Below, piece by piece: positions 1 to 22,885 of a stretch of DNA of 27,206 bases. Location: the NCBI GenBank assembly GCA_020725385.1, contig DYFC01000070.1, positions 1-27,206 on the forward strand. The letters are read 5' to 3'. The position numbers and the translations under genes are program-made. Numbering within the stretch: position 1 is the first letter of the stretch; every line of letters starts with the position of its first letter. This DNA comes from Nitrospira japonica (GTDB lineage Bacteria; Nitrospirota; Thermodesulfovibrionia; Thermodesulfovibrionales; SM23-35). The notes beneath the pieces were generated by a model. The model did not search any database. It was not told the DNA's origin and worked only from the letters and a program-made list of their open reading frames with translations.

Positions 1-459
1 GGTATTGGAACAACATTCAAGATATATCTTCCATTGACTAAAGAAGAAGAGCATTATGCAGGCTCAGAGGTAATGCAGAAGATAGAGGGCGGGACAGAGA
101 CGATACTATTTGCAGAAGATTCTCCGGATGTGAGGGAATCGACGGTGCATTTGCTTGAGGAATTTGGATACAAAGTGATAGAGGCATATGATGGAGAAGA
201 GGCTATAGAGAAATTCAAATTATATAAAGACAAGATACAACTTGTGATACTTGATTTAGTGATGCCAAAGAAAAATGGGATAGAAGTATATGAGGAGATA
301 AAGAAGATAGTTCCTGAGGTGAAAGTAATTTTCACGAGCGGATATTCAGAAGATGTTATTAGCAAGGGGACAATTTTAAAAGAAGGTTATGAAATAATCC
401 AGAAACCCGTTTCTCCAGCACAATTACTGGAAAAAATAAGAGAAATATTAAAGAAGTAG
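1..459 (+). CDS. Hybrid sensor histidine kinase/response regulator, C-terminal fragment (5' end outside the window)
   Basis: Frame 1 is open from base 1 and reads GIGTTFKIYLP (end of a HATPase domain), then a linker and a full receiver (ILFAED...ILDLVMP...TSGY...KP). The ORF-track start at 34 is therefore not the real start. Confidence 0.9.
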   Translation, partial: GIGTTFKIYLPLTKEEEHYAGSEVMQKIEGGTETILFAEDSPDVRESTVHLLEEFGYKVIEAYDGEEAIEKFKLYKDKIQLVILDLVMPKKNGIEVYEEIKKIVPEVKVIFTSGYSEDVISKGTILKEGYEIIQKPVSPAQLLEKIREILKK

Positions 460-2253: not shown

Positions 2254-3981
2254 ATGAAAAAATTTAATCTTTCAAATTTTAAAGAATGGTTTATTTCTCA
2301 CGATTTATTCGGACTTTTAGGTTCAGACCGTTATAAAAGCCTTAAAAGAAGGATTGTTATTCTTGAGGTTGCTTTATCTATACTTCCACTTTTGATAGTT
2401 GTTACAATCAGCTATTTCTGGTTTCAGCAAATTCTTAAAGATGATTACAGGAATCAACTAAAGTGGGATATCGAAAATACCGGACAATCTATTGAGACAT
2501 TTCTTAATGAAAGATTGTCATTTCTAAGATTTCTTACGTTGTCTTATAAATATGATGAGCTCTCTGATTATAAAAAACTTTCAAATGTATTTTACGCATT
2601 CAAAAGAGAATTCCCGGGCATAGTTGATATTGGAATAATTGATGATAATGGTATTCAGATAGCATATGCAGGTCCATATAAATTAACAGGGGTAGATTAT
2701 TCTAATCAGAACTGGTTTAATGAAGTTGTAATTCGTTCTTCGAACATAAGCGATGTTTATATGGGATATAGAAAAATACCTCACTTTTCAATAGCAGTCA
2801 AAAAGGACTTACCTGAAAAAGAAGGTTTCTGGATTATAAGAGCTACGATTGATATGGAAACGTTAAAAAAATATGTCTATGCTTTAAACATCGGAGAAAA
2901 AGATGATTCTTTCATAATTAATAAGGATGGAATTCTACAAACAGATACTCGCTTTCACGGCAAGGCATTAAATAAATATATAGAGACACCGATACCCTCA
3001 AATGAACAAACATTGGTAAAAGAATGTGATATTAAAGTTCACGGACATCAAATATGTGGTTATTCTCCAATCAAAAATACTGATTGGTTTCTTATTACTG
3101 TTATACGTTCGACTCCGTATGCAAGAATACCCGGAATTTTCAGAAATGAATTATTTTTTATCATAATTTTTAGTATCTTACTGAATACTTTTATTACTAC
3201 AGTCATAGCACAGGCAATAGTGAACAAGATAAAACAGACTGACATGGAACGGGAGGAAGCTATTGCTTCCTGCGAACATGCCGGGAAGATGGCTTCAATT
3301 GGCAGGCTCGCATCAGGCGTTGCGCATGAAATAAATAATCCTCTGGCGATAATCAATGAAAAAGCAGGATTAATGAAAGATATTCTCGAATCTTCCGATG
3401 ACCTTCAAAAGAATAAGTATAAATTTCTTTCTTTATTAAATGGAATATTCGATAGTATTACACGGGCACGCACGATAACGCACCGGCTTCTTGGATTTTC
3501 ACGAAGGATGGATCTGTCCCATGATCTTTTTGACTTGAATGAAGCTATTAAAGAGGTAGTAAGTTTTATTGACAAGGAGATTCAGTTTAGAAATATTAAT
3601 CTTGTCTTAAATCTAAGTCCGGAATTACCAAGAATTGAAACTGATAAAGGACAGTTGCAGCAAGTAATTTTAAATATAATAAATAACGCTATAGATGCAG
3701 TGGAAGAAGACGGACGGATTGAAGTAATTACAGAAATGAGAGATAATAATAAAATTAGAATAATAATATCAGACAACGGGATAGGTATTCCAAAAGATAA
3801 AATAAAACATATATTTGAACCATTTTATACTACAAAAGAGAAAGGAAAAGGAACCGGTCTCGGGCTTTCTATATCCTATGGAATTATCCAGAAACTCGGG
3901 GGTAATATATCCGTGGAAAGTGAAGTAGGTAAAGGTACAACTTTTAGTATCGATATGCCGTTAAAGTACGAGGCTATTTGA
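2254..3981 (+). CDS. Membrane sensor histidine kinase with extracytoplasmic Cache-type domain
   Basis: Two TM segments flank a Cache-like region (DYSNQNWF...ISDVYMGYR..PHF.IAV). H box GVAHEINNPL, N box ILNIINNA, G1 DNGIG, F box FEPFYTTK, G2 GTGLGL. Confidence 0.92.
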   Translation: MKKFNLSNFKEWFISHDLFGLLGSDRYKSLKRRIVILEVALSILPLLIVVTISYFWFQQILKDDYRNQLKWDIENTGQSIETFLNERLSFLRFLTLSYKYDELSDYKKLSNVFYAFKREFPGIVDIGIIDDNGIQIAYAGPYKLTGVDYSNQNWFNEVVIRSSNISDVYMGYRKIPHFSIAVKKDLPEKEGFWIIRATIDMETLKKYVYALNIGEKDDSFIINKDGILQTDTRFHGKALNKYIETPIPSNEQTLVKECDIKVHGHQICGYSPIKNTDWFLITVIRSTPYARIPGIFRNELFFIIIFSILLNTFITTVIAQAIVNKIKQTDMEREEAIASCEHAGKMASIGRLASGVAHEINNPLAIINEKAGLMKDILESSDDLQKNKYKFLSLLNGIFDSITRARTITHRLLGFSRRMDLSHDLFDLNEAIKEVVSFIDKEIQFRNINLVLNLSPELPRIETDKGQLQQVILNIINNAIDAVEEDGRIEVITEMRDNNKIRIIISDNGIGIPKDKIKHIFEPFYTTKEKGKGTGLGLSISYGIIQKLGGNISVESEVGKGTTFSIDMPLKYEAI

Positions 3982-3992
3982 GGAGGCTATGA

Positions 3993-4376
3993 ATGTCACA
4001 GATAAAAGTTCTTCTTGTTGATGATGAAATTGAGTTTGTTTCAGCTCTGGCTGAACGTCTGCAGATGAGAAATTACATTGTTAATACAGCTTCAAATGGA
4101 CTTGAAGCAATGGCATTATTTCATAAAAGCCCTCCTGATGTTGTAATACTCGACCTTAGGATCCCCGGTATGAACGGGATAGAAATACTCAAAAGCATTA
4201 AAACATTTGATCCATCTATTGAGGTAATTATACTGACCGGACATGGTGATATAGAAAGTGTTGAACAAGGAATGAAAAGCGGAGCATTTGAATATATAAT
4301 GAAACCAATTGATATAGGTGAATTAACCGCAAAGATTGATAGTGCTATGGAGAAACGGAGAAAAAGTTTAACTTAA
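3993..4376 (+). CDS. Stand-alone response regulator (receiver only)
   Basis: LLVDDE, ILDL, LTGHG and KP receiver motifs; AGGAGG RBS upstream. Confidence 0.92.
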   Translation: MSQIKVLLVDDEIEFVSALAERLQMRNYIVNTASNGLEAMALFHKSPPDVVILDLRIPGMNGIEILKSIKTFDPSIEVIILTGHGDIESVEQGMKSGAFEYIMKPIDIGELTAKIDSAMEKRRKSLT

Positions 4377-4382
4377 AGGAAA

Positions 4383-5042
4383 ATGATGAACCTGAATTTT
4401 GAAGAATTACTACGCCAGCTTCAGATGAGATTCATCGGAAAGATTATCGCAAGTTTTACTCATGAAATTAAGAACCATCTGGCAATAATAAAAGAATCTG
4501 CTGGTTTAATGGATGATATGTTAAGAATAGGAAAGTCTTCTGTAAATACTAATCAATATCTTGATATTCTAAACTCAATTGTTGAACAGGTTGATAGAAG
4601 CATCGATTTGTTCAAGTTCTTGAACAGATTTGCTCATAGAATGGATAATCAATTTTGCAATTTTCAGGTTAATGAAAGTCTTGAAGAATTAATAGCATTA
4701 ATGACACGTCTTGCCAATCAGAAAAAAATTATCTTTGAAAAATCTCTTGAACCAGAACTTCCCGAGCTTTATAATAATCCGTCTTTATTACAGTTAGTCA
4801 TTTTTAGTTTCCTTGAAAAATTTATTCAACAGCTTGCCAGTGGAAGCAGTATTATTGTTGTAACCGGAAAAACAGATAATTGTGTTAAAATAAGTCTTTC
4901 CTTCAAAGGAGAAATTATAAAATCCGAACCATTAAATGATTCATCAGAAATTATAAACGCCATTGTTAAAGAAAAAATGAAAGGAGAAATTGAAGATAAA
5001 GCTGATGCTGTAATGATAACAATTTCTTCTGTTTCAAAGTAA
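4383..5042 (+). CDS. Histidine-kinase-like protein with intact H box and degenerate ATP-binding domain (putative phosphotransferase/pseudokinase)
   Basis: FTHEIKNHLAIIKESAGLM matches the H box of the upstream kinase. No recognisable N, G1, F or G2 box and no sensor domain. Confidence 0.75.
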   Translation: MMNLNFEELLRQLQMRFIGKIIASFTHEIKNHLAIIKESAGLMDDMLRIGKSSVNTNQYLDILNSIVEQVDRSIDLFKFLNRFAHRMDNQFCNFQVNESLEELIALMTRLANQKKIIFEKSLEPELPELYNNPSLLQLVIFSFLEKFIQQLASGSSIIVVTGKTDNCVKISLSFKGEIIKSEPLNDSSEIINAIVKEKMKGEIEDKADAVMITISSVSK

Positions 5043-5060
5043 TCTAATGGAAGTTAATGG

Positions 5061-5462
5061 ATGAAAACTGGTGAAATAAAATTACTCATTGTAGATGATG
5101 AAGTTGCATTTGCCAATACACTTACACAGCGTCTTAAAATCAGGAATATCGAAGCTACTCCTGTATATGATGGAGAGCAGGCTCTTTCAAAACTAAAGGA
5201 ATCAGTTTTTGATGTGGTTTTGCTTGACTTAAAGATGCCCGGTATGCACGGGCTTGATGTGCTAAGGCAAATAAAAAAAATATATCCGGAAATTCAGGTT
5301 ATAATTCTTACAGCTCATGGAACCGATAAAGATGAAGAGGAAGCAAGATTATTTGGAAGTTTTGATTTTTTAAAAAAACCTGCTGATATTGATAATCTTG
5401 AGCAGAAAATAAGGAAGGCTTACAGAGAAAAAAAGAATATTGAAAGAATTAATGGGGAATAG
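5061..5462 (+). CDS. Stand-alone response regulator (receiver only)
   Basis: LIVDDE, LLDLKMPG, LTAHG and KP motifs. Confidence 0.92.
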   Translation: MKTGEIKLLIVDDEVAFANTLTQRLKIRNIEATPVYDGEQALSKLKESVFDVVLLDLKMPGMHGLDVLRQIKKIYPEIQVIILTAHGTDKDEEEARLFGSFDFLKKPADIDNLEQKIRKAYREKKNIERINGE

Positions 5463-5502
5463 ATAAAAATTAGTAACTAATCAATAAAAAGGAGGATATT
5501 CT

Positions 5503-5943
5503 ATGGCAGAAGAACTTAATGCTAATGTTTTGCTGGTGGATGACGAAGAACAGTTCTTAAAAGTATTTTCTCAGAGGCTTGAAGGTAGAGGGTTAAAAGT
5601 TGATACATCAACGAGCGGAGAGGAGGCTATCAATAAAGTTAAAGGCAAAGAATTTGACGCTATAGTTCTCGACCTTGCTATGCCGGGCATGAGCGGTATA
5701 GAAACTCTTAAGAAAATCAAAGCTGAAAATCCTGATTTACAGATTATAATGCTGACAGGACATGGTTCAATTGATAAAGGAGTAGAAGCTATTAAAGCCG
5801 GCGCTATTGACTTCATGGAAAAACCTGCTGACCTTAATAAGATTATGGAAAAGATTGCAGAGGCTAAACATAAAAGATTTGTAATTGTTGAAAAGAAACA
5901 CGAAGAGCACATTAAAGAAATCATACAAAGTAAAGCCTGGTAG
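5503..5943 (+). CDS. Stand-alone response regulator (receiver with short C-terminal helix)
   Basis: LLVDDE, VLDLAMPG, LTGHG and KP motifs; AAGGAGG RBS. Confidence 0.92.
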   Translation: MAEELNANVLLVDDEEQFLKVFSQRLEGRGLKVDTSTSGEEAINKVKGKEFDAIVLDLAMPGMSGIETLKKIKAENPDLQIIMLTGHGSIDKGVEAIKAGAIDFMEKPADLNKIMEKIAEAKHKRFVIVEKKHEEHIKEIIQSKAW

Positions 5944-5961
5944 TTTATAAGAATTTCTGAA

Positions 5962-5996
5962 ATAGCAGAATAACTTTCATAATGTTATTCTGCTAT
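5962..5996. terminator. Hairpin between convergent operons (probable bidirectional terminator)
   Basis: Perfect 13-bp inverted repeat ATAGCAGAATAAC / GTTATTCTGCTAT with a 9-nt loop, lying between stops at 5943 (+) and 6001 (-). Confidence 0.75.
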
Positions 5997-6000
5997 AATT

Positions 6001-7362
6001 TTAATCAGATTCCAGGCCGTATTTTTTTAATTTTCGCCATAGAGAGACACGGTCTATTCCGAGTATTTGAGCTGCGAGAGTTTTACTATTATTGACCTCT
6101 TTAAGCACCCATTGTATATATGTTTTTTCCTGTTCGTCCAGAGATGGAATTTTACCGTCTTTTTTTCTGAACGTTTTTATACTGATTACCTTAAGATCTT
6201 CCGGTAATTGTTCAATATTTATTGTGTTGCCCGTACATAGTGCAACACCTCTTTCAATAATATTTTCCAGTTCTCTAATATTTCCGGGGAAATCATACTC
6301 CTGCAGGATTGCTATTACATCGGATGAAATTTCTTTTATATTTTTTTTCATAACAGCATTATATTTTTTTAGAAAATGATAACAGAGTATCGGAATATCA
6401 TCCCTTCGTTCTGACAATGGGGGGATTTTCAATGATACAACGTTTATTCTAAAATATAAATCTTCTCTAAAATCTCCATTTTTAATAGCTTTACTAATAT
6501 CTCTATTTGTTGCAGCTATGAATCTGACATCAACTTTAATTGGTACCGTGCTACCAACTCTTAAAACTTCTTTTTCCTGTATTACCCTTAAAAGCTTTAC
6601 CTGCATTGAAGGTGGCATTTCAGTTATTTCATCAAGGAAAAGAGTACCTCCTGATGCCATTTCTACCAGACCCTTCTTCATTGTCAGTGCACCGGTAAAA
6701 GCGCCTTTTTCGTGGCCGAACAACTCGCTTGATAGAAGTTCTTCTGTAAAAGCCCCGCAATTTATAGCAAAAAAGGGCCCTTCTGCACGCTTGCTGTTAA
6801 AATGCACATACTTTGCAAAAAGTTCTTTTCCTGTTCCACTTTCTCCTGTTAATAAGATATTGCAGTCTGTTGGTGAAATCTGTTTTGCTGTCTCAAGCAG
6901 TTTTTGCATTGCAATGTTCTGGGTTATTATTTTAACCTTTCCTTGAAAACTTTCAATCTGCTCTCTTAATTCCTTGTTTTCTTTTTTTAGCTTTACTTTT
7001 TCAACAGCTTCTTTAATTATATTTCTAACCAGGTCGAGTTTAAAAGGTTTGGCAATGTAATGGAAGGCACCTTTTTTCATTGCATCAACAGCAGATTCCA
7101 ATGTTGCATATCCGGTAATAAGAATTACCTCTGAATCGGGATGGTCGTTGCGGCATTTTTCAAGTATCTGAAGTCCATCAACTTTTTCCATTCTTAAATC
7201 GGTCAAAATAACATCGAATTTCTGCTCATCAAGCAATTTAAGGGCGTTTATGCCACTACTTGTACCAATAACATCGTAACCTTCTTTTTTCAAAATGTGT
7301 TCGAGATTCTTTACTGCAATTTTTTCATCATCAACTACCAGTATTTTAGTCTCATTAGGCAT
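6001..7362 (-). CDS. Sigma54-dependent response regulator (NtrC/AtoC family bEBP: REC-AAA+-Fis HTH)
   Basis: Receiver domain, Walker A GESGTGKE, GAFTGA loop, Walker B LFLDEI, PGNIREL, and HTH AAQILGIDRVSLWRKLKKY. Confidence 0.95.
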   Translation of the reverse strand: MPNETKILVVDDEKIAVKNLEHILKKEGYDVIGTSSGINALKLLDEQKFDVILTDLRMEKVDGLQILEKCRNDHPDSEVILITGYATLESAVDAMKKGAFHYIAKPFKLDLVRNIIKEAVEKVKLKKENKELREQIESFQGKVKIITQNIAMQKLLETAKQISPTDCNILLTGESGTGKELFAKYVHFNSKRAEGPFFAINCGAFTEELLSSELFGHEKGAFTGALTMKKGLVEMASGGTLFLDEITEMPPSMQVKLLRVIQEKEVLRVGSTVPIKVDVRFIAATNRDISKAIKNGDFREDLYFRINVVSLKIPPLSERRDDIPILCYHFLKKYNAVMKKNIKEISSDVIAILQEYDFPGNIRELENIIERGVALCTGNTINIEQLPEDLKVISIKTFRKKDGKIPSLDEQEKTYIQWVLKEVNNSKTLAAQILGIDRVSLWRKLKKYGLESD

Positions 7363-8858
7363 TAGATTTGCTCCCTTATGGGAAACCTTATCAGAAAAGT
7401 CGATCCCTTACCAATTTCACTACAAACTCCTATGCAACCATCATGTTCATGTATAATTTCCTGAACAATATAAAGTCCAAGCCCCACTCCTTTACCGACA
7501 TCTTTTGTAGTAAAAAAAGGATCAAAAATCTTCGGCAAAACGTCAGGTGGGATTCCGCTTCCTGTATCCTTGATTTCTATATCTATTGTGTCAGTTTTTA
7601 TTGGACATTCACCTGTACAACTACCCTGTTCTTTTGTGTAATCGCAACGTTCATCTATGTCGCCTTTCAAAATATGTTTATATGCTTTTATTGAAACAGT
7701 ACCTTCATTATTAATAGAGTCTATTGCATTTTTAATCAAGTTTAAAAACGCTTGCTGAATCCTCTGCTTATCGGCAAAAATTGTAAATTCATCCGGCACT
7801 TCAATATTGACAGCAATTCTCGTAGGTATTTCACCTTTTAGCAATTGTTTTGTCTCTTGCAGGATTTTATTTAATTGCAAATATTCTCTTTTGAATTTTT
7901 TATCCCTTGAAAACTCGAGTAAAGATTTCACAATATTTTTAGCTTTGTCTGTCTGTTCATCAATCTGGGATAACAATTCTTTTTTGAATTTATTATCAAT
8001 ATCATCGATTTCTTCGATTAATATCTGGCACGATGAAGATATATTTGATAGAGGATTATTCAATTCATGTGCAACTCCGGATATGAGAGTGCCGAGTGAA
8101 GCAAGTTTTTCACGCTGAACAAGATGTTTTTGTCGTAATTCAAGCTCGTAAAGCATTTTGTTGAATGCCTGTGTAAGAGATACAATCTCCCTATCTTTTG
8201 AAATATTAGTTATTTTTTTTAATTTTCCTTTTGAAATTTCATCCATCATTGTTTCAATATTCTTCAGCGGTTTAACGATCATTCTTGATAATATCTGTCC
8301 AACAACTATGCCGATGATTGAAAATGATAGTATCGAAATAATGATAAATTTCCTTATTGTATTGAGCATAGCCTGAATTCTGAGCCGCTCAACTTTTGAA
8401 ATGTTTTCAGCAAAATTTATTATTTCTTTACCTTTCTCCCTGATAGCATTTTCCACTAAACTCAACCTTTTATCATCTTCTGCACTTCTCAAAATAGAAA
8501 ACTGTTTCATTAATAAACGGTATTGATTTAGATTATTCTTTAATTTATCAATATCTACCGAAATAGCAAGATTTTTATAGTCTTTTGTATTCTTATTGAG
8601 AATATCCAGAGCTTTTTCTAAATAAAAAATAGTTTCATTATAGTCTTCAATCTTTTTATATAAAAAGAAATTCTTTTCAAACCTTCTCATTTCAAGGGTT
8701 GCATCGAAAAATTCTGTTACAATTTCTCCGAAGTGTACTTTTTTTTCGATATACCAGAGTTCAATCAAAGTGAAAAGAGAAAGACCAATGATAGCTATTA
8801 TTCCTAAAAAATAGCCCAATGTAATTTTTCGTCTTATGCTTGGATGATACAAAAACAC
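7362..8858 (-). CDS. Membrane sensor histidine kinase with HAMP domain
   Basis: Two TM segments, HAMP (KPLKNI...EIVSLTQAFNKM), GVAHELNNPL, FLNLIKNA, DTGSG, FDPFFTTK, GVGLGL. Its stop overlaps the start of the response regulator. Confidence 0.93.
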   Translation of the reverse strand: MFLYHPSIRRKITLGYFLGIIAIIGLSLFTLIELWYIEKKVHFGEIVTEFFDATLEMRRFEKNFFLYKKIEDYNETIFYLEKALDILNKNTKDYKNLAISVDIDKLKNNLNQYRLLMKQFSILRSAEDDKRLSLVENAIREKGKEIINFAENISKVERLRIQAMLNTIRKFIIISILSFSIIGIVVGQILSRMIVKPLKNIETMMDEISKGKLKKITNISKDREIVSLTQAFNKMLYELELRQKHLVQREKLASLGTLISGVAHELNNPLSNISSSCQILIEEIDDIDNKFKKELLSQIDEQTDKAKNIVKSLLEFSRDKKFKREYLQLNKILQETKQLLKGEIPTRIAVNIEVPDEFTIFADKQRIQQAFLNLIKNAIDSINNEGTVSIKAYKHILKGDIDERCDYTKEQGSCTGECPIKTDTIDIEIKDTGSGIPPDVLPKIFDPFFTTKDVGKGVGLGLYIVQEIIHEHDGCIGVCSEIGKGSTFLIRFPIREQI

Positions 8859-8880
8859 GAATTTCTAATATCTCCATTTG

Positions 8881-10890
8881 CTATACAAGCAATCTGCTAA
8901 TTATATCTTCAATTCTATCAGTCAAGATTATTTCAAGTCCTTTAATTACTTTTGGATCCAGGTTTTCAATATCTACTTTATTCTTAAATGGTAATATAAT
9001 TGTTTTTACTCCTGCCCTGCGGGCAGCGAGTATTTTTTCTTTTATTCCGCCGACCGGTAAAATTCTTCCGCTTAAAGTTAACTCTCCGGAGACTGCTACA
9101 TCCCTTCTGGCTGGTTTTCCTGTGAAAAGCGATATAAGCGAAGCGGCTATGGTTGCCCCTGCTGAAGGCCCGTCTTTAGGTATCGCACCTGCAGGAATAT
9201 GGATATGAATGTCATAGCCTTCAAGAATATTTTCGCTAATATTAAAAGATGATGCATTGCTTCTAATATAGCTCAACGCAGCTTGAGCCGATTCTCTCAT
9301 TACATTCCCGAGTGAACCTGTAAGTATTAAATTCCCCAGACCTTTCATACGGGCTGATTCTATAAAAATAATTTCTCCGCCTGTTTCCATCCAGACAAGT
9401 CCTGTAACAACTCCTATTCTATTGTTTTCATCGGCAACTTCAATGAAATATTTCCTCGGACCGAGATACCTTTCTACTAATTCCGGAGTAATATTAACAA
9501 GCCTGATAGATTCTTTATGATATACAAATTCAGTAGCTATCTTTCTGCATATATTTGATATCTGTCTTTCGAGGTTTCTTGTCCCGGCTTCCCTTGTATA
9601 ATCATTTATAATTTTAGAGACAGCCTCGACAGAAAAATTTGGCGGGTAATCGGATAATCCCTGTTCTCTTATTTGCTTGGGTATTAAATGAAGAAGCGCA
9701 ATATTGATTTTTTCATCTTCGGTATAACCGGAAAATTCGATAATTTCCATTCGATCCCTTAGAGGTCCCTGAATATTTTCAGCTATATTTGCAGTAGCTA
9801 TAAACATTACATTGGATAAATCAAAGGGAACATCAAGATAATGGTCAATGAAGCTCTGATTTTGTTCAGGATCAAGAACTTCAAGAAGTGCTGATTCGGG
9901 ATCTCCTTTAAAGTCCTGCCCTCCGACCTTATCAATTTCATCAAGCATAATTACAGGATTTAAGGATTCTGCTCTGCGGATTTCTTCTATAATACGCCCG
10001 GGCATAGCACCTGCATATGTTCTTCTATGTCCTCTGATTTCGGCTTCATCTTTCATTCCGCCAACTGAAATTCTGGCAAACTTTCTTCCAAGAGCATCAG
10101 CAATAGATTTGCCAATAGATGTTTTGCCTGTACCGGGTGGACCGGTAAAACAAAGAACAGAACCTTTTGTAGATATAGTTGATAATTTTTTATCAAGCGC
10201 ATGTTTTACTGTTGAACGTACTTCATCAAGCCTGAATGGCTTTGCAATATAATGGAAAGCGCCTTTTTTTATGGCTTCTATGGCAGAATCTACAGCAGCA
10301 TAAGCGGTTATCATTATTACCTGTACATCAGGATATTTGTTTTTTACTTTTTCAAGGAGAACGAGACCGTCAATCTTTTCCATCTTCAAATCTGTAAGCA
10401 CTACATCAAATGAAGAAGTATTTAACTTTTCAATTGCTTCAACTCCATTTGATGCTGTAACAACATCATAATTTTCCTTTTTAAGAATATGTTCAATATT
10501 ATTACGTGCAATCTCTTCATCATCGACAACGAGTATGTGTGGTTTCTTATTCATTACCAGAACCTTAACAGCAAGATGTTCCAATATTCTTTCTTTAACG
10601 TCATTTAAACCATAATGTCTCTCATCCAAAATTTTCTTAGCCTGATTTAAATCGAGATTATCAGAAGTTTTTCTGTCCCATGGAAGACTGACAAGATAAT
10701 CTATATATGAAAGACTAATAGTATATTCTGCAGATGCAGGACTCATTTTAGACATTATTTCAAGTTCTCTCTCAGCAATATGTTTTACATTCTCGGGCAT
10801 CTTTGCAGAATTTATTCTTTGCCTGAAGTCATTCAAGATTGTAATTTGTTGGCTGTCTTCTGTTTTTTTAAATATATTCATTATCGGCAT
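8881..10890 (-). CDS. lon: Lon-type (S16) ATP-dependent protease lacking the N-terminal domain and carrying an inserted receiver domain
   Basis: LPW...ILDERHYGLNDVKERILEHLAV, Walker A GPPGTGKT, GHRRTYAGAMPG, Walker B MLDEIDK, catalytic PKDGPSAG (Ser) and VGGIKEK (Lys). Receiver at about aa 116-235. Confidence 0.9.
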   Translation of the reverse strand: MPIMNIFKKTEDSQQITILNDFRQRINSAKMPENVKHIAERELEIMSKMSPASAEYTISLSYIDYLVSLPWDRKTSDNLDLNQAKKILDERHYGLNDVKERILEHLAVKVLVMNKKPHILVVDDEEIARNNIEHILKKENYDVVTASNGVEAIEKLNTSSFDVVLTDLKMEKIDGLVLLEKVKNKYPDVQVIMITAYAAVDSAIEAIKKGAFHYIAKPFRLDEVRSTVKHALDKKLSTISTKGSVLCFTGPPGTGKTSIGKSIADALGRKFARISVGGMKDEAEIRGHRRTYAGAMPGRIIEEIRRAESLNPVIMLDEIDKVGGQDFKGDPESALLEVLDPEQNQSFIDHYLDVPFDLSNVMFIATANIAENIQGPLRDRMEIIEFSGYTEDEKINIALLHLIPKQIREQGLSDYPPNFSVEAVSKIINDYTREAGTRNLERQISNICRKIATEFVYHKESIRLVNITPELVERYLGPRKYFIEVADENNRIGVVTGLVWMETGGEIIFIESARMKGLGNLILTGSLGNVMRESAQAALSYIRSNASSFNISENILEGYDIHIHIPAGAIPKDGPSAGATIAASLISLFTGKPARRDVAVSGELTLSGRILPVGGIKEKILAARRAGVKTIILPFKNKVDIENLDPKVIKGLEIILTDRIEDIISRLLV

Positions 10891-11078
10891 ACCTTAATTT
10901 ATAATTACTATTCAAATCAAATAATAAGCAAATATTATACCTTCCGAAAAAATCATACTTTATTAATGATGAATTCCTATTTATATATTGTTCGTCTTTA
11001 ATAAATAAGAAAAAATAAGGAAGTTTTATTGAAAGTCGATTACATATGTAAATCCTCATTATTCTCGGAATATTCTTT

Positions 11079-11180
11079 GTTGCATTATACAACAAAAACA
11101 ATATTTTATGTAACATCTCAAAACTCTTTGATAAAACTTAATATTTCTTCCCTTTACAATTTATAGTTGCATATTGCAAC
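11079..11180. promoter_or_regulatory. Two copies of the palindrome GTTGCA-N3-TRCAAC (candidate UAS for the adjacent sigma54 activator)
   Basis: GTTGCATTATACAAC at 11079-11093 and GTTGCATATTGCAAC at 11166-11180, in the divergent intergenic region. Confidence 0.6.
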
Positions 11181-11314: not shown

Positions 11315-12145
11315 ATGGAAATAAAGAAATTAGTTCAGCAATTTGAGGATTTAATGTCAACTTCATTTTTTGAAGAAGGCAAATTGGAGACCCTGAAAAG
11401 AATGGTGAATAACCGTCACAAAATTCTTCTTGTTTTAACCGGAATGGAAGTTGATATAGATGCAGTAAAGTATTCACTAAATCTTAGCAGACGTATTGGA
11501 GCTGGAATTAAAATTTTATACCTAACCAGAGATAACTCGGAACTCCCGCGTATCGAAGATGCCCTCAATAAACTAAAAACCATAGGAATAAGTTATCAGA
11601 TTAAAGTTTTGGAAAATTCTGTAAAAGAAGAAATTGTTAATTACATAAATAAAGAAAAAGAAGCAGATATTAGTTTTGTAATAGTTGATTCGAGGGATCT
11701 GGGAATTCATTCACTTAATGGCCGGAACGTAGATTACCATGATTGGGAAAAAATGAGATGCCCGCTGGTTCTGGTATCAAAAACACCAAAAATTATTTCA
11801 CTAAAGAGGAGGATGGTTATGACACAAAATTATGTAAGCATGAGGAAGAAGCCGCTCGGTAAAATGGTAATTTATGGACTGGCTTCTGTTGCAATGTATG
11901 CAGCGTTACTTGTTAATCAAACAGCTATTACATCACTATTTACAAGAGGAGCATGGTATGCATTATTTCCTATAGCGACAGCTTTCGCTTTTTCGTTTGT
12001 GCACGGGAATTTTGCGGGCTATTTCTGGTCTGTCTTAGGTGTAGAAGCAACCAAAAAATCTTTGCGTAAAAGTCAGGAAGAGTATAAGCATATTGAAAGA
12101 AGAGAACGCCCTCAGCCACAGCCACGTCTGAGAGCAAGATTATAA
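11315..12145 (+). CDS. Apparent in-frame fusion of a degenerate USP-like protein and a small two-TM membrane protein (second start at 11819)
   Basis: The N-terminal part has a USP-like pattern (KILLV...AVKYSLNLSRRIGA.IKILYL...CPLVLVS). An internal AGGAGG (11807-11812) precedes an in-frame ATG at 11819 and a 108-aa hydrophobic segment. Confidence 0.65.
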   Translation: MEIKKLVQQFEDLMSTSFFEEGKLETLKRMVNNRHKILLVLTGMEVDIDAVKYSLNLSRRIGAGIKILYLTRDNSELPRIEDALNKLKTIGISYQIKVLENSVKEEIVNYINKEKEADISFVIVDSRDLGIHSLNGRNVDYHDWEKMRCPLVLVSKTPKIISLKRRMVMTQNYVSMRKKPLGKMVIYGLASVAMYAALLVNQTAITSLFTRGAWYALFPIATAFAFSFVHGNFAGYFWSVLGVEATKKSLRKSQEEYKHIERRERPQPQPRLRARL

Positions 12146-12166: not shown

Positions 12167-13255
12167 ATGCAAAACATAGTATTAGACGCAGCAAATTTTA
12201 TAGATCTAAATTCTGTGAATATACTTTATCTTTTTATTGTTGGGTTTATCGGTGGACTTGTCAGCGGTTTTATAGGTTCCGGAGGTGCATTTGTACTTAC
12301 ACCGGGCATGATGAGTCTTGGTGTACCGGGACTTGTAGCAGTAGCCAGCAATATGTGCCATAAATTCCCCAAGGCACTTGTAGGTGCAATTAAACGGGCA
12401 AAATACGGACAGGTAGATATTAAATTGGGGATTATATTTGGAATATTTGCAGAGGCTGGTGTATTTTATGGCGCACATATTCAGGAAAAAATTAAAGCAG
12501 CTTTCGGCGATGCAGGTTCTAACCTTTATGTAAGTGCAGCATTTGTTATTGTTCTTGCAATAGTAGGAGGTTTTGTACTGCGCGACGCGATTAAAACTTA
12601 CAAATCCGGCAATACAGACGCTGAGGAAAAAACATCAAGACTTGCAAGGATGGTCCAAGCTATAAATATTCCCGGCACCATGGTTTATTTCAAGAGCTTG
12701 AATGCAAGAGTATCTTTGCTTTTTTTAATACCTCTTGGTTTTTGTACAGGCATGCTTGCTGCAACCATAGCGGTTGGCGGATTTCTTGGAGTGCCTTCAA
12801 TGATATATGTACTTGGTGCCCCGAGCCTTATGGCATCAGCTACCGAACTTGTTGTTGCATTCGTAATGGGACTTGGTGGGTCATTTAAATATGCCCTTCA
12901 CGGGCTCGTTGATATAAGATTGTCAGCTATAATCCTTGCAGGTTCACTTTTCGGGATTCAATTAGGTGCAATCGGAACAACTTATGTCAAACCATTCATG
13001 ATAAAATTAGTTATGGGTGTTATAATGGTCATAGTTCTTTTTAGCAGAGCATTGATGATACCTGTATATCTTTCACAACTCGGTATAATTCAGACACTAA
13101 CTGAAGAAACTATAAAAATCCTAAAGAATACAAGTTTTGCTATAATGGCATTTGCACTTTTATCAGGTGCTTTTATTGTTCTGAGAGCAATGTGGATTGG
13201 TAAAAAGACCGAAAGTGCAATCGCGGAAAAAGAAGAAGCAATAGAAAATGTCTAA
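12167..13255 (+). CDS. TauE/SafE (TSUP, DUF81) family membrane transporter
   Basis: Multi-TM protein with the repeated motif GFIGGLVSGFIGSGGAFVLTP / GMLAATIAVGGFLGVPSMIYVLG; strong RBS. Substrate cannot be determined from sequence. Confidence 0.88.
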   Translation: MQNIVLDAANFIDLNSVNILYLFIVGFIGGLVSGFIGSGGAFVLTPGMMSLGVPGLVAVASNMCHKFPKALVGAIKRAKYGQVDIKLGIIFGIFAEAGVFYGAHIQEKIKAAFGDAGSNLYVSAAFVIVLAIVGGFVLRDAIKTYKSGNTDAEEKTSRLARMVQAINIPGTMVYFKSLNARVSLLFLIPLGFCTGMLAATIAVGGFLGVPSMIYVLGAPSLMASATELVVAFVMGLGGSFKYALHGLVDIRLSAIILAGSLFGIQLGAIGTTYVKPFMIKLVMGVIMVIVLFSRALMIPVYLSQLGIIQTLTEETIKILKNTSFAIMAFALLSGAFIVLRAMWIGKKTESAIAEKEEAIENV

Positions 13256-13274: not shown

Positions 13275-14129
13275 ATGAATATTTATAGAAAAATACTCGT
13301 AGCAATAGATGGTTCTAAAACAAGCATGCATGCCTTAAGAGAGTTTATTAATTTCTCAAAATCGTATAATCCAGATATAACCATTATTTCTGTTATTCCA
13401 CCTTATGACGGAGACCTAAATGCGTTGTGGGTTAACAATATAGATAGTTCTATAAAAAGACAATGTGATACTGCGCTTTCGGATGCTTTAAAAATAGCTA
13501 AAGATGCAGATATATCAGTCAGTGCTGTTTGTGAAGAGGGAGAGATACATGAAAGAATTGTTGATTTTGCTGATTCAGGGAATTATGACCTGATTGTAAT
13601 GGGTAAAAAAGGAATGAGCTTAATTGAAAAAGCATTTGTTGGCAGTGTAACTTCAAGAGTAATTGGTTATAGCAGACAGGATGTTCTTGTTATACCTTTT
13701 GAATCGAAACTTTCGTGGGATAATATACTTGTAGCAACCGACGGTTCGGCATATAGTGAAGTTGCTGCTATGAGGGCAATAGAGATTGCCAGAAAATATA
13801 AAAGTAAAGTTAAAGTTCTTTCTGTTGTTGATGTAACTGTGGAATTCATGATACGCGCACAGGAAGTATATAATAATCTTGTAGAAAAGGCGAAAGATAT
13901 CACAAACAATATAAAAGCTAAGGCCTTTTCCCTTGGTGTTGGTGCAGAACCAATTGTCCGTGATGGTGAAGTATATAGAGTAATTCTTGATGTTGCCAAT
14001 GAATATAAAATAGACATGATTGTCATGGGGAGTCTTGGTAAGTCGGGTATTAAACGATTACTGATGGGAAGTACTACCGAAAGAGTGCTCGGGCATGCTA
14101 ATTGTCCGGTTCTGATTATTAAGCCATAG
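13275..14129 (+). CDS. Universal stress protein with tandem USP domains
   Basis: KILVAIDGS...DLIVMGKKG...VGSVT and NILVATDGS...DMIVMGSLG...LMGSTTERVL...CPVLII. Confidence 0.93.
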   Translation: MNIYRKILVAIDGSKTSMHALREFINFSKSYNPDITIISVIPPYDGDLNALWVNNIDSSIKRQCDTALSDALKIAKDADISVSAVCEEGEIHERIVDFADSGNYDLIVMGKKGMSLIEKAFVGSVTSRVIGYSRQDVLVIPFESKLSWDNILVATDGSAYSEVAAMRAIEIARKYKSKVKVLSVVDVTVEFMIRAQEVYNNLVEKAKDITNNIKAKAFSLGVGAEPIVRDGEVYRVILDVANEYKIDMIVMGSLGKSGIKRLLMGSTTERVLGHANCPVLIIKP

Positions 14130-14289: not shown

Positions 14290-15507
14290 CTATTTGTTAC
14301 CCTGTCTAATTTTTTCATTTGCTTTTTTAATTGTTTCACTTAATAGATTTACATCAACAGGTTTTTCAAGATAAGCGAATGCTCCGAGTTCCATACATTT
14401 TTTCCTGTCTTCTTCCGAGCCATGTCCTGTAAGAATGATAACTTCAATTTTCGGGTTTGTCTGTTTCACACGTTTAAGAACTTCAATACCATCGATTCCG
14501 GGCATTTTCAGGTCAAGTATCATAACTTCAGGTTCTTCTTCTTTGATTATATTCAGAGCGCTTTCACCATCGTAGGCTACAACAGAACCTATTTCTCTCA
14601 TGAGAAGTCTTTCAGAAAGTGTTTGAACAAACTGGCGTTCATCATCAACGAGCAATAATTTTGTCGGCATCTCAAGGTCGTATTTTCTGACAATATCTGT
14701 CTGGTAAAATTTTTTACCAACTTTTGTTGAGACAGACTTCACTCCAGGAACTTTTGTCGCTATGGCCTGTAATTCTTTTTCAAGTTTCTCAAGCATTAAT
14801 ACATTTTTATTTATTGTTAAAGTAACAGCACCGTCTTCTGCTTCTGCATTTATGAAATATTGTCCTTCATTGGCAAGAACAGTCTCAAATTTTGCAGCGA
14901 GGATAAAATCCTGAATAGCTTTCTTGCTCCGGTCGGTTGTTTTAAGAACATCCTTTTCCAGACTTTTTCTTACCATATCTGCTATTTCTTTTGAACTCAT
15001 CTTATCAGTTGGTAAAACCATATCGTAAAGTGAAATATTCCAGGGATCGTCTTTTTCAAGAATAGTTCTTGTCCATATAATCTTTTCCTCGTCGCTTTTG
15101 TGAATAATTTTCGAGGCATCACTTTCGGAAACGCCCGATGAAATAGCGACTGAAATTCTATATTTCATGTCTGCTATTAGGCATATTTTAAGAACATGTG
15201 AAATTTTTGGCGGTATTAAAAGGCTTGTAAAACCATTGATTAAAAGGTTGTCTTCGGATAGGGTTTCAGCAACAGCCAGTTTAAGGTATGCGATTGATTT
15301 TTCTTTTTCTCTTGTAAACTGATTAAAGATAGAAGTCTTTGAAGAAAAAGCTTTTGATATTTTATCTTCAGACATTCCGGACAATTTGGCTGCCTTAGAA
15401 ACAAAGTCAGAGTCAGTTAGATATTTATAGCCTGACATAGCTATAATTTCTTTTATAGCTATTTCTTCATTACAATACTTACCTGAAAAAATACTTATTA
15501 TTGACAT
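14290..15507 (-). CDS. Multidomain response regulator: cytidylate-kinase-like domain, BON-like domain and C-terminal receiver
   Basis: N-terminal IISIFSGKYC...VLKICLIADMKYR...DDPWNISLYDMVLPT pattern of CMK-like proteins; BON-like INAEAEDGAVTL...IATKVPGVKSV; receiver LLVDDE/ILDLKMPG/LTGHG/KP. Confidence 0.78.
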   Translation of the reverse strand: MSIISIFSGKYCNEEIAIKEIIAMSGYKYLTDSDFVSKAAKLSGMSEDKISKAFSSKTSIFNQFTREKEKSIAYLKLAVAETLSEDNLLINGFTSLLIPPKISHVLKICLIADMKYRISVAISSGVSESDASKIIHKSDEEKIIWTRTILEKDDPWNISLYDMVLPTDKMSSKEIADMVRKSLEKDVLKTTDRSKKAIQDFILAAKFETVLANEGQYFINAEAEDGAVTLTINKNVLMLEKLEKELQAIATKVPGVKSVSTKVGKKFYQTDIVRKYDLEMPTKLLLVDDERQFVQTLSERLLMREIGSVVAYDGESALNIIKEEEPEVMILDLKMPGIDGIEVLKRVKQTNPKIEVIILTGHGSEEDRKKCMELGAFAYLEKPVDVNLLSETIKKANEKIRQGNK

Positions 15508-15526
15508 TTTTCCCTCCGTTTATTAT

Positions 15527-17650
15527 CTAAACCTTGCAAACAGCGAGCAAGGGACATTCTTTTTCTAACTTGTCCTTATGGGTTGTTGGATAAATCTTGT
15601 TTATTGCCTCTTCCTGTGTCGGATATATATGGTCAGCACCTATTTTTTCAAAAAGATGTGTGCGTTTAAGTACAGCCATTACTGACTCATTTACTCCACT
15701 TAAGGATATATCCATACCGGAACTTCTTATCCTGTCAACAAGCAATGACAAAGTTTCCTCGCCGGAAGCATCCATTTCATTTATACCGTTAGCAATAAGA
15801 ATGATATGCTTTAAATTCTTCTTCTTTGAGATAATTTCTCTTATACTATCTTCAAGATAACTTGAGTTTGCAAAGAATAAAGGACCATCGAATCTGACAA
15901 CCGAAATATGTTCACATTCTTTAAGACCGTGAGTTTCAATGCAACGAAGAGATTTATCTTCATGCCTTGCAAGTAATGCAATCCTGGGTTTCATGCTCTT
16001 ATATAAGAATACCGAAATTGAAAGAACAACGCCAATCATTATACCCTTATCAAGATGCGGGGCAAAAGCCAGAGTTGCAATAAAAGCAAGTACCGAGATA
16101 ATTCCATCATATTTCTGGGCCTTCCATGCATGTACAAAACCCGAGACATTTATTAAGCCTATAACAGCCATCATAATAACAGCAGCAAGAACAGACTGGG
16201 GCAAATGATAAAGCAAGGGGGTAAAGAATAAAAGGACTATTAAAACAGCAAGGCTTGTAAAAACACTTGAGAGTCCTGTTATAGCGCCTGCCTGGAAATT
16301 AACTGCTGAACGTGAAAAAGAACCTGAAACAGGATAGCCTTTTCCTATAGCTCCTACTATATTTGCGATTCCCTGTCCTATAAGTTCCTGATTCGGGTCG
16401 AGCCTTTGCCCGGTTTTTCCTGCCAATGCCTTGGCTATTGATATTGCTTCCATGAATCCAAGCAGTGAGATAATTACAGCATAAGGAAGAAGATGTAAAA
16501 TAACCTTTAAATCTACAGGCGGTACTGTGAATGAAGGTAATCCTTTTGGAACAACACCAACAACAGCGCCACCACCAATAAAGCGTACAGAGTCTTCCTT
16601 TATGGGTTTATTTCCAACTCTAATTCTCCAGATTTTATTGTCAGCTGATAATCCTTGTGGCACTTCCCCTTTAAGATAAAAAGTCATAGTACCATCGGAT
16701 TGTTTAACACCTGTAAAAAACATTTCTCTAAGTTCTTTTCTTAAAGAAGCTTCTTTCATTTTTAATTCTTCCATACTTACATTAAGAACTTCTTCGTTTC
16801 GCTTTATATTTAGTATTTCTATTTTATTATTATTCTTTTTTGCTTCGTCCATAAGTCTTGTATTTTCAGTGCGTTGTTTTGAAAGCTCGGAAATATCATT
16901 TAGTGTTTTATTAAAGGTTATAATCATTTCGTGAACTTTTGGAGATTGTATATGGGAAATATCTACCCTGGTATCATTTTCAAACCCTATTGCCCATGAA
17001 ACAATTGTTGTGATTGCTACGGCTACAAGAACGTTGGGTATTTTTGGATTAATCTTTTTTAATCCGAACATTATAATAAAAGCAGCTACTCCCATAATAA
17101 ATGTTGGCCAGTGCGTGTAATGTATTGCAGCTTCTATAACTCTAATGACTGTTTCATAATGATGCGGAGCTTCATCAACTGAAACACCGAACATTTTTGA
17201 TAACTGTGAAGTGGCAATAATTATTGCCGCGCCATTAGTAAAGCCATTAACAACAGGATGGGATAAAAAATTTACAACAAGTCCGAGTCTTAAAACACCA
17301 AGCAAGAATTGAAAGGCACCTACAATTAAAGCAAGTAATATCGCATAAGCAATAAAGCTTTCACTACCTGCTGTAGCTAAAGGACTTAGAGATGCGGATG
17401 TCATTAGTGATACAACTGCAACCGGCCCGGTAGCAAGTTGTCTGCTTGAACCAAACAATGCTGCAAGCATCGGTGGTAAAAAAGAAGCATAAAGGCCATA
17501 ATAAGAAGGCAATCCGGCTAATTGCGCATAAGCCATTGATTGGGGTATCAATACTAACGCAACAGTAAGTCCTGCAATTGCGTCAGCTTTTAGTTTTGAA
17601 AAGTTGTAACCTTTCATCCATTCCAGAAATGGAAATATTCGTGCCAGCAT
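15527..17650 (-). CDS. SulP/SLC26 family inorganic anion transporter with STAS domain
   Basis: DAIAGLTVALVLIPQSMAYAQLAGLP, GSSRQLATGP, NQELIGQG, GSFSRSAVN, and STAS motif RFDGPLFFAN...MDASG. Confidence 0.93.
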   Translation of the reverse strand: MLARIFPFLEWMKGYNFSKLKADAIAGLTVALVLIPQSMAYAQLAGLPSYYGLYASFLPPMLAALFGSSRQLATGPVAVVSLMTSASLSPLATAGSESFIAYAILLALIVGAFQFLLGVLRLGLVVNFLSHPVVNGFTNGAAIIIATSQLSKMFGVSVDEAPHHYETVIRVIEAAIHYTHWPTFIMGVAAFIIMFGLKKINPKIPNVLVAVAITTIVSWAIGFENDTRVDISHIQSPKVHEMIITFNKTLNDISELSKQRTENTRLMDEAKKNNNKIEILNIKRNEEVLNVSMEELKMKEASLRKELREMFFTGVKQSDGTMTFYLKGEVPQGLSADNKIWRIRVGNKPIKEDSVRFIGGGAVVGVVPKGLPSFTVPPVDLKVILHLLPYAVIISLLGFMEAISIAKALAGKTGQRLDPNQELIGQGIANIVGAIGKGYPVSGSFSRSAVNFQAGAITGLSSVFTSLAVLIVLLFFTPLLYHLPQSVLAAVIMMAVIGLINVSGFVHAWKAQKYDGIISVLAFIATLAFAPHLDKGIMIGVVLSISVFLYKSMKPRIALLARHEDKSLRCIETHGLKECEHISVVRFDGPLFFANSSYLEDSIREIISKKKNLKHIILIANGINEMDASGEETLSLLVDRIRSSGMDISLSGVNESVMAVLKRTHLFEKIGADHIYPTQEEAINKIYPTTHKDKLEKECPLLAVCKV

Positions 17651-20709: not shown

Positions 20710-20720
20710 GGAGGATTACT

Positions 20721-22091: not shown

Positions 22092-22106
22092 TGAAAAAAG
22101 GAGTAA

Positions 22107-22448
<342 letters not shown>

Positions 22449-22497
22449 CTCTAAAGGCAAAGAGCTAATAGCAGAGAGCAAAGAGCCAGAAAACAGA

Positions 22498-22630
22498 AGC
22501 CGTGCCTGTTCTCCGATATCCGTAAAAGGCATTATAAAAACCAGAGGGGAACCATATCTGTAAGCACACAAAATGTAAGGTGAAATTAGATACCTGATAT
22601 TTTTAACAGACAAGAGGCACGGCTATTTTT
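22498..22630 (+). ncRNA. Candidate structured RNA of unknown family, 3' of the PII gene
   Basis: 10-bp GC-rich closing stem AGCCGTGCCT/AGGCACGGCT enclosing nested stems GTTCTCC/GGGGAAC, TCTGT/ACAGA and AGGTG/TACCT, followed by ATTTTT. Folded by eye; strand is not certain. Confidence 0.45.
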
Positions 22631-22679
22631 CGGGAAATATTTATATTATCTGATGAATTTAAAAGACAGTAATTTTCCA

Positions 22680-22885
22680 ACAAAATTGTAGGAACTACAA
22701 AATTGTATGAAATAACAGGCTCCTGATTAATCTTTATAATATATTGAAAAAAAATAATAAAATTTAGTTTATTGAACTCTTTTAATATTAAATCACACAA
22801 AATTGTAGGAAATTCCCAGCAATAAAAAATGTTCTTACATAAAACACTTTAATATCAACATGTTACAAATGGCATACTTTTAGAT
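22680..22885 (+). promoter_or_regulatory. Sigma54-type promoter with three UAS copies and IHF site upstream of amt2-glnA
   Basis: ACAAAATTGT at 22680, 22697 and 22797; TATCAACATGTTA (22853-22865, exact IHF consensus); TGGCATACTTTTAGAT (22870-22885). Confidence 0.72.

Follow-up and report, generated by a model that had tools for sequence, protein, structure and literature searches.

A receiver-carrying Lon protease and a sigma-54 activator with paralogous receiver domains beside a single histidine kinase in Nitrospirota

A stretch of 27,206 nucleotides from a genome assembly filed under Nitrospira japonica (GenBank GCA_020725385.1, contig DYFC01000070.1, positions 1 to 27,206; hereafter the window) encodes three consecutive minus-strand genes, in the order lon, kinase and activator, for a receiver-carrying Lon protease (REC-Lon), a membrane histidine kinase and a sigma-54-dependent response regulator. 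Sequence comparison and phylogeny support the receiver domains of the protease and of the activator as sister paralogues, and the alignments and trees trace both to one duplication that is old and not local. By its genes and their sequences, the locus is a Nitrospirota (Thermodesulfovibrionales-type) orthologue of the DVU3303-3305 stress module of Desulfovibrio vulgaris. In the reading that we consider probable, the kinase phosphorylates both receivers, the activator drives a divergent operon with genes for a TauE/SafE-family transporter and a universal stress protein (USP), and the phosphorylated receiver switches the truncated Lon. An arrangement of one kinase with two outputs is plausible, and in the available part of the earlier literature it was already proposed for DVU3303-3305 (Rajeev, 2011; PMC3333781).

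The host genome comprises 2.46 Mb in 71 contigs with 34.7% G+C. The three genes and their parts are as follows.

8881..10890, minus strand: REC-Lon, a 669-aa open reading frame (ORF) with a likely start at ATG 10881 that gives 666 aa; a LonA without the N-terminal globular substrate-binding domain
10555..10827, minus strand: remnant of the Lon N-terminal helical region, aa 22-112, which in an ordinary LonA lies directly before the AAA+ module; from structure alignment
10207..10536, minus strand: Lon receiver domain, aa 119-228 (Pfam PF00072 Response_reg, E 9.7e-31), inserted between the last N-terminal helix and AAA+ strand 1
8887..10155, minus strand: Lon AAA+ ATPase, lid and S16 protease, aa 246-668 (Pfam AAA 246-387, Lon_lid 409-459, Lon_C 467-668)
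7362..8858, minus strand: membrane histidine kinase, 498 aa (Pfam HAMP 190-236, HisKA 255-318, HATPase_c 363-495)
6001..7362, minus strand: sigma-54-dependent response regulator (the activator), 453 aa (Pfam Response_reg, Sigma54_activat PF00158 with E 8.8e-71, AAA_lid_14, HTH_8)
7015-7344, minus strand: activator receiver, aa 7-116 (Pfam Response_reg)

The lon and kinase genes are separated by 22 nt, and the kinase stop and the activator start share 1 nt (TAATG); the ORF coordinates agree with the co-orientation, gap and overlap described in an earlier note on this DNA. The true start of Lon is probably the ATG at 10881, which is favoured by the 666-aa database form P0001 and by the nearest relative, locus L007, where the protein begins at the equivalent MNIFKK. 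Upstream of its HAMP domain the kinase has a region of ∼130 aa flanked by two hydrophobic segments. The activator has the features of a sigma-54 enhancer-binding protein, with a GAFTGA loop in its AAA+ domain, seen in the translation, and a C-terminal Fis-type helix-turn-helix.

Aligned without gaps from ILVVDDE to LDxVR, the Lon and activator receivers are identical at 68 of 107 residues; the recount gives exactly the figure of about 64% that the earlier note had reached by a manual alignment. Near-identity extends over KKGAFHYIAKPF and the residues around it, and BLASTP between the two domains returns an E value of 2e-46. Among the 76 receiver domains of the genome the twins are reciprocal best matches (61% over 116 aa), their next-best matches standing at 46% and 42%, and the 2036 receiver pairs of the genome that align over at least 90 aa have a median identity of 30% and a 99th percentile of 54%. 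The similarity is therefore real and far above the background. The comparison across genomes used a locus sample of one genome per species, selected by alignment across both receiver junctions, which comprises 78 loci of 593 confirmed stretches; all counts out of 24 loci refer to the window together with the REC-Lon loci among those 78, including L032, which is split by a frameshift, and L016, which lies near a contig end. The within-locus identity of the Lon and activator receivers, available for 22 loci, ranges from 43 to 60% with a mean of 50%, and the window has the highest value (59.7% over 119 columns). Between genomes the mean identities are 48% for Lon versus activator receivers, 54% for Lon versus Lon and 56% for activator versus activator.

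At the DNA level the twin receivers of the window are 64% identical, with agreement at 41% of third codon positions versus 31% from base composition alone, and the same codon is used in 31 of the 68 codon pairs that encode the same residue (32.9 expected from codon usage). The synonymous sites are thus saturated and give no sign of a recent copy or of gene conversion between the receivers. A tree was computed from 59 receivers, namely 24 from Lon, 23 from partner activators, four from activators of modules without Lon and eight others. All module receivers fall into one starred clade (98/96) apart from other NtrC-type receivers; the clade also takes in L030 and L031, labelled as outgroup, and inside it no Lon receiver is sister to its own activator partner. 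A further starred clade (97/87, with L031 inside) holds 18 of the 24 Lon receivers, while those of the four closest Nitrospirota loci group together weakly, L011 and L012 being unplaced; activator receivers cluster by taxon, that of the window within a starred clade of six. The backbone of the tree is a polytomy, compatible both with an origin of the Lon receivers inside the activator receivers and with an origin elsewhere. In approximately unbiased (AU) tests a single clade of all 24 Lon receivers was not rejected (p = 0.32), and trees in which the Nitrospirota Lon and activator receivers were forced together were rejected with p = 0.016 for four loci and p = 0.003 for six, values that are weakened by the choice of these groups after the tree had been seen.

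A recent duplication or gene conversion of the receivers is rejected by the saturated synonymous sites, the tree and the AU tests, and a Nitrospirota-specific duplication or homogenisation is rejected by the latter two p-values. The earlier note had proposed that the receiver was duplicated within the operon; the duplication itself is borne out by the single starred clade of module receivers, and a recent or local event is not. It had also counted it against its reading if the Lon receivers grouped independently of their operon partners. Taken literally, this is what was found, since the Lon receivers group apart from those partners; nevertheless, the three genes of the module are passed on as a set, and covariation within genomes is seen at the interface columns described below.

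The REC-Lon architecture is shared, at 72-100% identity, by at least 120 protein clusters (90% identity) in a word-indexed search, in which the protein of the window itself ranks first, and the named clusters among those listed are Nitrospirota or Thermodesulfovibrionales. The hosts of the sampled REC-Lon loci are Nitrospirota, several orders of Thermodesulfobacteriota (Desulfobacter, Desulfobulbus, Syntrophobacter, Desulfomonile and Desulfovibrio are among them) and metagenome-assembled genomes labelled Pseudomonadota. Both the kinase and the sigma-54 regulator are present in the fetched DNA of 23 of the 24 loci, the remaining one ending ∼1 kb past lon; the 23 come from at least two phyla, and in each of them no more than a few kb separate the kinase-activator pair from REC-Lon. 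The genes hyp276 and/or TauE of the divergent operon adjoin lon in 20 of the 24 loci. In a quick maximum-likelihood tree built from the ATPase and protease domains, one branch splits 23 REC-Lons from 25 randomly chosen canonical LonAs (Shimodaira-Hasegawa-like approximate likelihood ratio test, SH-aLRT, 99); this split and the common insertion point of the receiver support a single origin of REC-Lon within LonA. Furthermore, the groups in the Lon tree agree with those in the tree of activator receivers and with the taxonomy. A representative search returned one full-length REC-Lon (P0122), shorter single-stretch matches (P0123, P0129, P0144 and P0155) and ordinary LonAs; the remaining top matches are long tandem-AAA Lons, which are unrelated.

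In the Desulfobulbales-type locus L032, positions 4987-6802, the REC-Lon frame is divided into overlapping ORFs for the receiver and for the ATPase and protease; the split is a frameshift or a sequencing error.

REC-Lon matches TIGR00763 (NCBIfam) at 728.6 bits against a cutoff of 608 and has both defining parts of a LonA, an AAA+ module with Walker A and B motifs and an S16 Ser-Lys protease domain. The N domain of LonA, LON_substr_bdg (PF02190), gave no match in a Pfam scan of REC-Lon. In a phmmer search of the PDB, aa 22-112 align with residues 13-103 of Bacillus subtilis Lon (3m6a) and aa 238-669 with residues 103-531, and the alignment to the full-length Lon chain 6u5z_A (784 aa) starts only at its residue 254, aa 22-112 corresponding to its residues 254-343. 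By these structure alignments the receiver is cleanly inserted, as 125 residues, after the last N-terminal helix and before the strand leading into Walker A, and the globular and coiled-coil N-terminal part of ∼240 residues is absent. Compared with canonical LonA (3m6a, 6u5z_A), the AAA+, lid and S16 protease parts are fully alignable (E about 1e-165) and keep the catalytic residues, whereas REC-Lon is distinguished by the loss of the N-terminal part, by a receiver just before Walker A and by a branch of its own. Another contig of the same genome encodes a canonical 818-aa LonA, whose ATPase and protease domains are 58% identical to those of REC-Lon.

In an alignment of 28 homologues the receiver residues D123, D124, D167, K217 and P218 of Lon are invariant and T195 and Y214 nearly so; invariant also are Walker A (G250-S258, GPPGTGKTS), D317 and E318 in the ATPase and S576 and K619 in the protease domain. 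We take S576/K619, D317/E318 and Walker A to be catalytic and the receiver residues to form the phospho-acceptor site. Both proteins have the residues of a phosphorylatable receiver and not those of a pseudo-receiver, in Lon the acidic pair D123/D124, the phospho-acceptor D167, T195 and K217-P218. In the paired alignments of Lon and activator receivers, columns 9, 52 and 102 are identical in all pairs, column 8 in 87% and column 80 in 91% of them.

An AlphaFold2 model of REC-Lon was built on the 28-homologue alignment, with a mean predicted local distance difference test score (pLDDT) of 82.8 and a predicted template modelling score (pTM) of 0.75. The model predicts helices 33-47, 54-68, 81-91 and 96-114 in the N-terminal region; the last of these is followed after three residues by receiver strand 118-122, and on the other side alpha5 of the receiver is predicted as one long helix (221-241), with AAA+ strand 245-249 three residues further on. 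Short junctions on both sides, the C-terminal one a continuous helix, would give tight mechanical coupling, and the model thus argues for a receiver that is mechanically coupled to the Lon ATPase. The receivers of NtrC1/DctD-type activators control AAA+ ring assembly. REC-Lon resembles these activators (1ny5, 3dzd) in the order of receiver and AAA+ domain and in an alpha5 that runs on as a helix towards the ATPase, and the best solved relatives of its receiver are NtrC-family receivers (3dzd, E 6.8e-21; 1ny5, E 7.8e-19). It differs in that its output is a protease and not a sigma-54 contact module, and in that the modelled linker past alpha5 is of ∼10 residues and not a long coiled coil.

The segments flanking the Lon receiver, aa 106-122 and 233-249 (10555-10536 and 10182-10155, minus strand), resemble each other, and both resemble the segment that ordinary Lon has once, before Walker A (K-x-L, several residues, K, hydrophobic I/V-L). 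This resemblance may be a trace of the splicing-in of the receiver.

The module of D. vulgaris has been described from several sides, and the following statements are taken from the available parts of the papers. DVU3303-3305 was termed a 'three-component system' in which protease activity was proposed to be phosphorylation-dependent, DVU3304 being the kinase and DVU3305 the sigma-54 regulator; the DVU3305 sites in Table S9 read GTTGC-N5-GCAAC, and orthologues occur in Thermodesulfovibrio yellowstonii and others, usually with a Lon regulator and a conserved binding site (Rajeev, 2011; PMC3333781). The DVU3303-3305 operon is listed without a sigma-54 promoter and DVU3302-3298 with one (Kazakov, 2015; PMC4641369). 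The pairwise cofitness of DVU3303-3305 is above 0.9 and the genes are detrimental in chlorate; DVU3299, the target transporter, called a putative anion transporter, is important in chlorate (fitness -2.3), and a similar cluster without Lon in the same species, DVU0539-0545, is linked to molybdate stress (Trotter, 2023; PMC10102598). The locus of the window has the same three proteins (a receiver-carrying Lon, a histidine kinase and a sigma-54 regulator), a divergent target operon with membrane, anion-transporter and USP genes and the same palindromic motif. It differs from DVU3303-3305 in its host, an uncultured Nitrospirota lineage, in the likeness of its receivers (∼60-64%, versus 43-56% in the Desulfovibrio-type loci fetched) and in a 24-residue Cys-containing insert in the ATP-binding domain of the kinase. 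No analysis of the relationship of the two receivers was found in the available parts of PMC3333781, PMC4641369 and PMC10102598.

The divergent operon and the candidate control elements between it and lon are as follows.

11315..12145, plus strand: first divergent gene (hyp276), an uncharacterised 276-aa protein with a hydrophobic C-terminal half
12167..13255, plus strand: TauE/SafE-family anion exporter, 362 aa (Pfam PF01925, E 2.3e-34)
13275..14129, plus strand: tandem universal stress protein, 284 aa (Pfam Usp in two stretches, E 2.3e-60)
11079..11093: predicted activator site with one mismatch, GTTGCATTATACAAC, matching the DVU3305 motif and conserved in L007
11166..11180: predicted activator site, the exact palindrome GTTGCATATTGCAAC, matching the DVU3305 motif and conserved in L007
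11258..11271, plus strand: candidate sigma-54 promoter of the divergent operon, GGCAT-N5-TTGA, downstream of the exact site and conserved in L007; the -12 element is non-canonical
10927..10942, minus strand: candidate promoter before lon, AGGTATAATATTTGCT, with GG-N10-GC sigma-54 spacing and three mismatches to the consensus; contains TATAAT

The TauE gene of the window is judged to be the counterpart of DVU3299. The 276-aa protein has no match in Pfam or NCBIfam; the Atlas lead points to hypothetical proteins of Thermodesulfobacteriota, with one cluster in which 11% of members have Usp. A distance of 87 bp separates the two predicted activator sites, which both lie between lon and hyp276. When one mismatch is allowed, the motif occurs four times in the window, where 0.34 matches are expected and none of 100 shuffles reaches four, and the whole 2.46-Mb genome contains only two exact DVU3305-type sites. 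Elsewhere in the sample, at least one copy (up to one mismatch) is found within 700 bp upstream of lon in 19 of the 24 loci, and site pairs 85-88 bp apart in 11 of the 24.

The GGCAT-N5-TTGA element may be the sigma-54 promoter of the divergent operon. A sigma-54 promoter scan of the window at up to three mismatches gave 113 matches versus 93 expected, an uninformative excess, and over 19 loci forward candidates upstream of lon were found in some only, at scattered distances; the candidate lon promoter AGGTATAATATTTGCT is not conserved in L007. In view of these scans and of the listing of the D. vulgaris lon operon without such a promoter, no claim is made that lon is driven by the activator. 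A small conserved ORF between lon and the divergent operon was considered and rejected, the four ORFs of at least 30 aa in this interval looking like chance frames.

Across 22 orthologues the H-box helix of the kinase, GVAHELNNPLSNISSSCQIL, hardly varies, in keeping with a conserved surface on which both receivers dock. The receiver surface expected to face the kinase was set before the columns were viewed, after the pattern of solved kinase-receiver complexes; it comprises alpha1 (columns 11-25), the beta5-alpha5 loop and the first part of alpha5 (together columns 103-110). True Lon/activator pairs were then compared with 5000 shuffled pairings over 23 loci. Interface identity is 0.578 for true partners and 0.527 for the shuffled mean, with none of the 5000 shuffles as high, and in the rest of the receiver domain the values are 0.482 and 0.466 (p = 0.0026). 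The interface excess is larger than that of the rest of the domain (p = 0.0014), and over 12 non-redundant loci interface identity is 0.54 versus 0.486 in shuffles (p = 0.001). The columns with the largest within-genome excess include 91, 97, 101, 104, 105, 109 and 114, on alpha4, beta5 and alpha5. These results favour co-evolution of the receivers within the module, and the raised within-genome interface identity together with the common clade fits a shared kinase.

At aa ∼385-425 the kinase carries a 24-residue insert in HATPase_c in which three cysteines are spaced as C-x9-C-x3-C. L007 shares it with the window, L009, L011 and L012 have part of it, and it is absent from all 17 Desulfobacterota-type and other orthologues aligned. 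The insert could be a redox- or metal-sensitive element.

In the mechanism that we favour, the membrane HAMP histidine kinase would phosphorylate the two paralogous receivers. The activator would bind the two GTTGC-N5-GCAAC sites in the divergent intergenic region and drive the operon for the membrane protein, TauE and USP. By analogy with NtrC1/DctD-type activators, phosphorylation of the inserted receiver would switch ring assembly or ATPase activity of Lon through the alpha5 helix. The receivers would have stayed alike under selection, most likely because both dock on the same kinase. The sequences establish the genes and their domains, the intact catalytic and phospho-acceptor residues, the orthology and synteny, the binding-site motif and how old the duplication is; we infer the phosphotransfer to both receivers, the phosphorylation-gated proteolysis and the substrates of the protease. 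A timer, a feed-forward loop and the degradation of the activator or of USPs are speculation. CheA with CheY and CheB is a branched, 'one-to-many' two-component pathway, and the present module resembles it in the proposed supply of two receivers, each with its own output, by one kinase; it differs in that the second output would be ATP-dependent proteolysis.

Several observations weigh against this mechanism. The partner shuffle ignores relatedness and amino-acid composition, and by eye the interface signal amounts to perhaps three or four lineage-specific parallel changes (Pro 101 and Arg 22 in a Syntrophobacter group, Asp 24 in a Desulfobulbales group and Phe 104 in Nitrospirota). Part of the excess (columns 91, 97, 101, 109 and 114) lies on the alpha4-beta5-alpha5 face, which in many receivers is a dimer surface and not a kinase surface, and the covariation fits a common kinase and receivers that touch each other alike and does not separate the two. 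A common orientation of lon, kinase and activator, as the window has it, is limited to five of the 24 loci; elsewhere lon is not transcribed together with the kinase-activator pair, which is convergent or upstream. Furthermore, Lon is missing altogether from loci L025-L028, where the kinase, the activator and the hyp/TauE/USP genes are present; the protease is therefore dispensable for the core pathway and accessory to the core module. In chlorate, according to the available part of the fitness study, the signalling mutants of D. vulgaris gain fitness and the transporter mutant loses it (PMC10102598); a simple model in which the activator turns on the transporter does not explain this, and a negative proteolytic arm could be accommodated. 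Polar insertions could account for part of the cofitness in D. vulgaris, lon being the first gene of the operon. No phosphotransfer or proteolysis assay, and no biochemistry of any receiver-carrying Lon, was found in the literature searched, subscription-only papers lying outside the search.

We see only a small chance that the twin receivers pair through their alpha4-beta5-alpha5 faces and that the Lon receiver recruits the activator, phosphorylated or unphosphorylated, as a substrate or keeps it inactive, which would make the protease a built-in feedback on the transcriptional arm and could coexist with a shared kinase. The near-identity of the KKGAFHYIAKPF region in the two proteins and the location of the top-excess columns (91, 97, 101, 104, 105, 109 and 114) on alpha4, beta5 and alpha5 would be in keeping with such pairing, although likeness on the dimer face is expected of any close paralogues, receiver dimer faces being generally conserved. 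REC-Lon is without the normal substrate-recognition domain, so that some other means of substrate choice is needed, and the opposite chlorate fitness of signalling and transporter mutants hints at a negative arm (PMC10102598, available part). Removal of the activator by Lon predicts, however, that lon mutants behave in the opposite way to activator mutants, yet their cofitness is above 0.9, a discrepancy that polarity could hide (PMC10102598, available part). A combined scheme appears just as doubtful: the twins would share the kinase and also pair, the Lon receiver would serve as a substrate adaptor that captures the receiver of the activator through the alpha4-beta5-alpha5 face, one phosphorylation would start transcription and with a delay deliver the activator to proteolysis, in a self-limiting pulse that arises from a single duplicated domain, and the alpha5 helix would make Lon ring assembly phosphorylation-dependent as in NtrC1-type proteins.

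Less probable still is a phosphate sink, in which the Lon receiver drains or competes for phosphoryl groups and thereby tunes the activator, the protease being constitutive or confined to self-turnover. Two receivers with near-identical kinase-facing helices beside a single kinase have the layout of a sink, a known example of which is the pair of CheY proteins of Sinorhizobium, and in view of the Lon-less modules L025-L028 Lon behaves as an accessory modulator; however, a stand-alone receiver would suffice for this role, whereas a complete ATPase and protease with invariant catalytic residues is kept across phyla, and the short linkers and continuous helix to the ATPase in the model argue for output control. 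It is equally improbable that the similarity is only inherited and that the Lon receiver is served by another kinase or by small phospho-donors, the module then being two systems that are no more than neighbours. The Lon receivers do cluster with one another rather than with their partners, 18 of the 23 loci that hold the kinase-activator pair do not have lon upstream of it in the same orientation, as the window does, and many other kinases and receivers lie nearby at 2254-5943 of the window. Separate inputs are nevertheless at odds with the proximity of the pair to REC-Lon, within a few kb in 23 of 24 loci from at least two phyla, with the agreement of the Lon tree, the activator-receiver tree and the taxonomy, with the within-genome covariation of the interface columns, and with the D. 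vulgaris cofitness above 0.9 (PMC10102598, available part).

If phosphorylation does gate REC-Lon as the shared-kinase mechanism has it, the module would connect a two-component sensor directly to ATP-dependent proteolysis without adaptor proteins, and it would be a natural case of a single kinase that drives both transcription and, in parallel, degradation. Among sulfate reducers and Nitrospirota the module is widely distributed; it was predicted in print in 2011 and gained genetic support in 2023, and the window is mainly one more member. The additions made here are modest, namely the single old duplication of the receiver, REC-Lon as a single LonA branch, the Lon-less modules, the rigid helical junction predicted in the model and a list of co-varying kinase-facing and dimer-facing columns, which supplies concrete residues for phosphotransfer and rewiring.

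The DNA around the locus encodes further signalling and transport proteins. The cluster at 2254-5943 (plus strand) comprises a dCache histidine kinase (575 aa), single-domain receivers of 127, 133 and 146 aa and a 219-aa protein with an H-box-like FTHEIKN motif and no Pfam match; it looks like a multi-step phosphorelay. At the start of the window, a receiver-encoding fragment at 1-459 (plus strand) is 95% identical to positions 1-456 of contig C12 of the same genome, and the assembly probably broke there on a hybrid kinase gene that occurs in two nearly identical copies. Two proteins are encoded at 14290-17650 (minus strand), convergent with the USP gene: one of 405 aa joins a cytidylate-kinase-like domain to a C-terminal receiver, and the other is a SulP sulfate permease of 707 aa with a STAS domain, which together with TauE places two anion transporters side by side. 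Finally, 19933-25733 (plus strand) holds a nitrogen-assimilation cluster with two Amt ammonium transporters, a P-II protein and glutamine synthetase.

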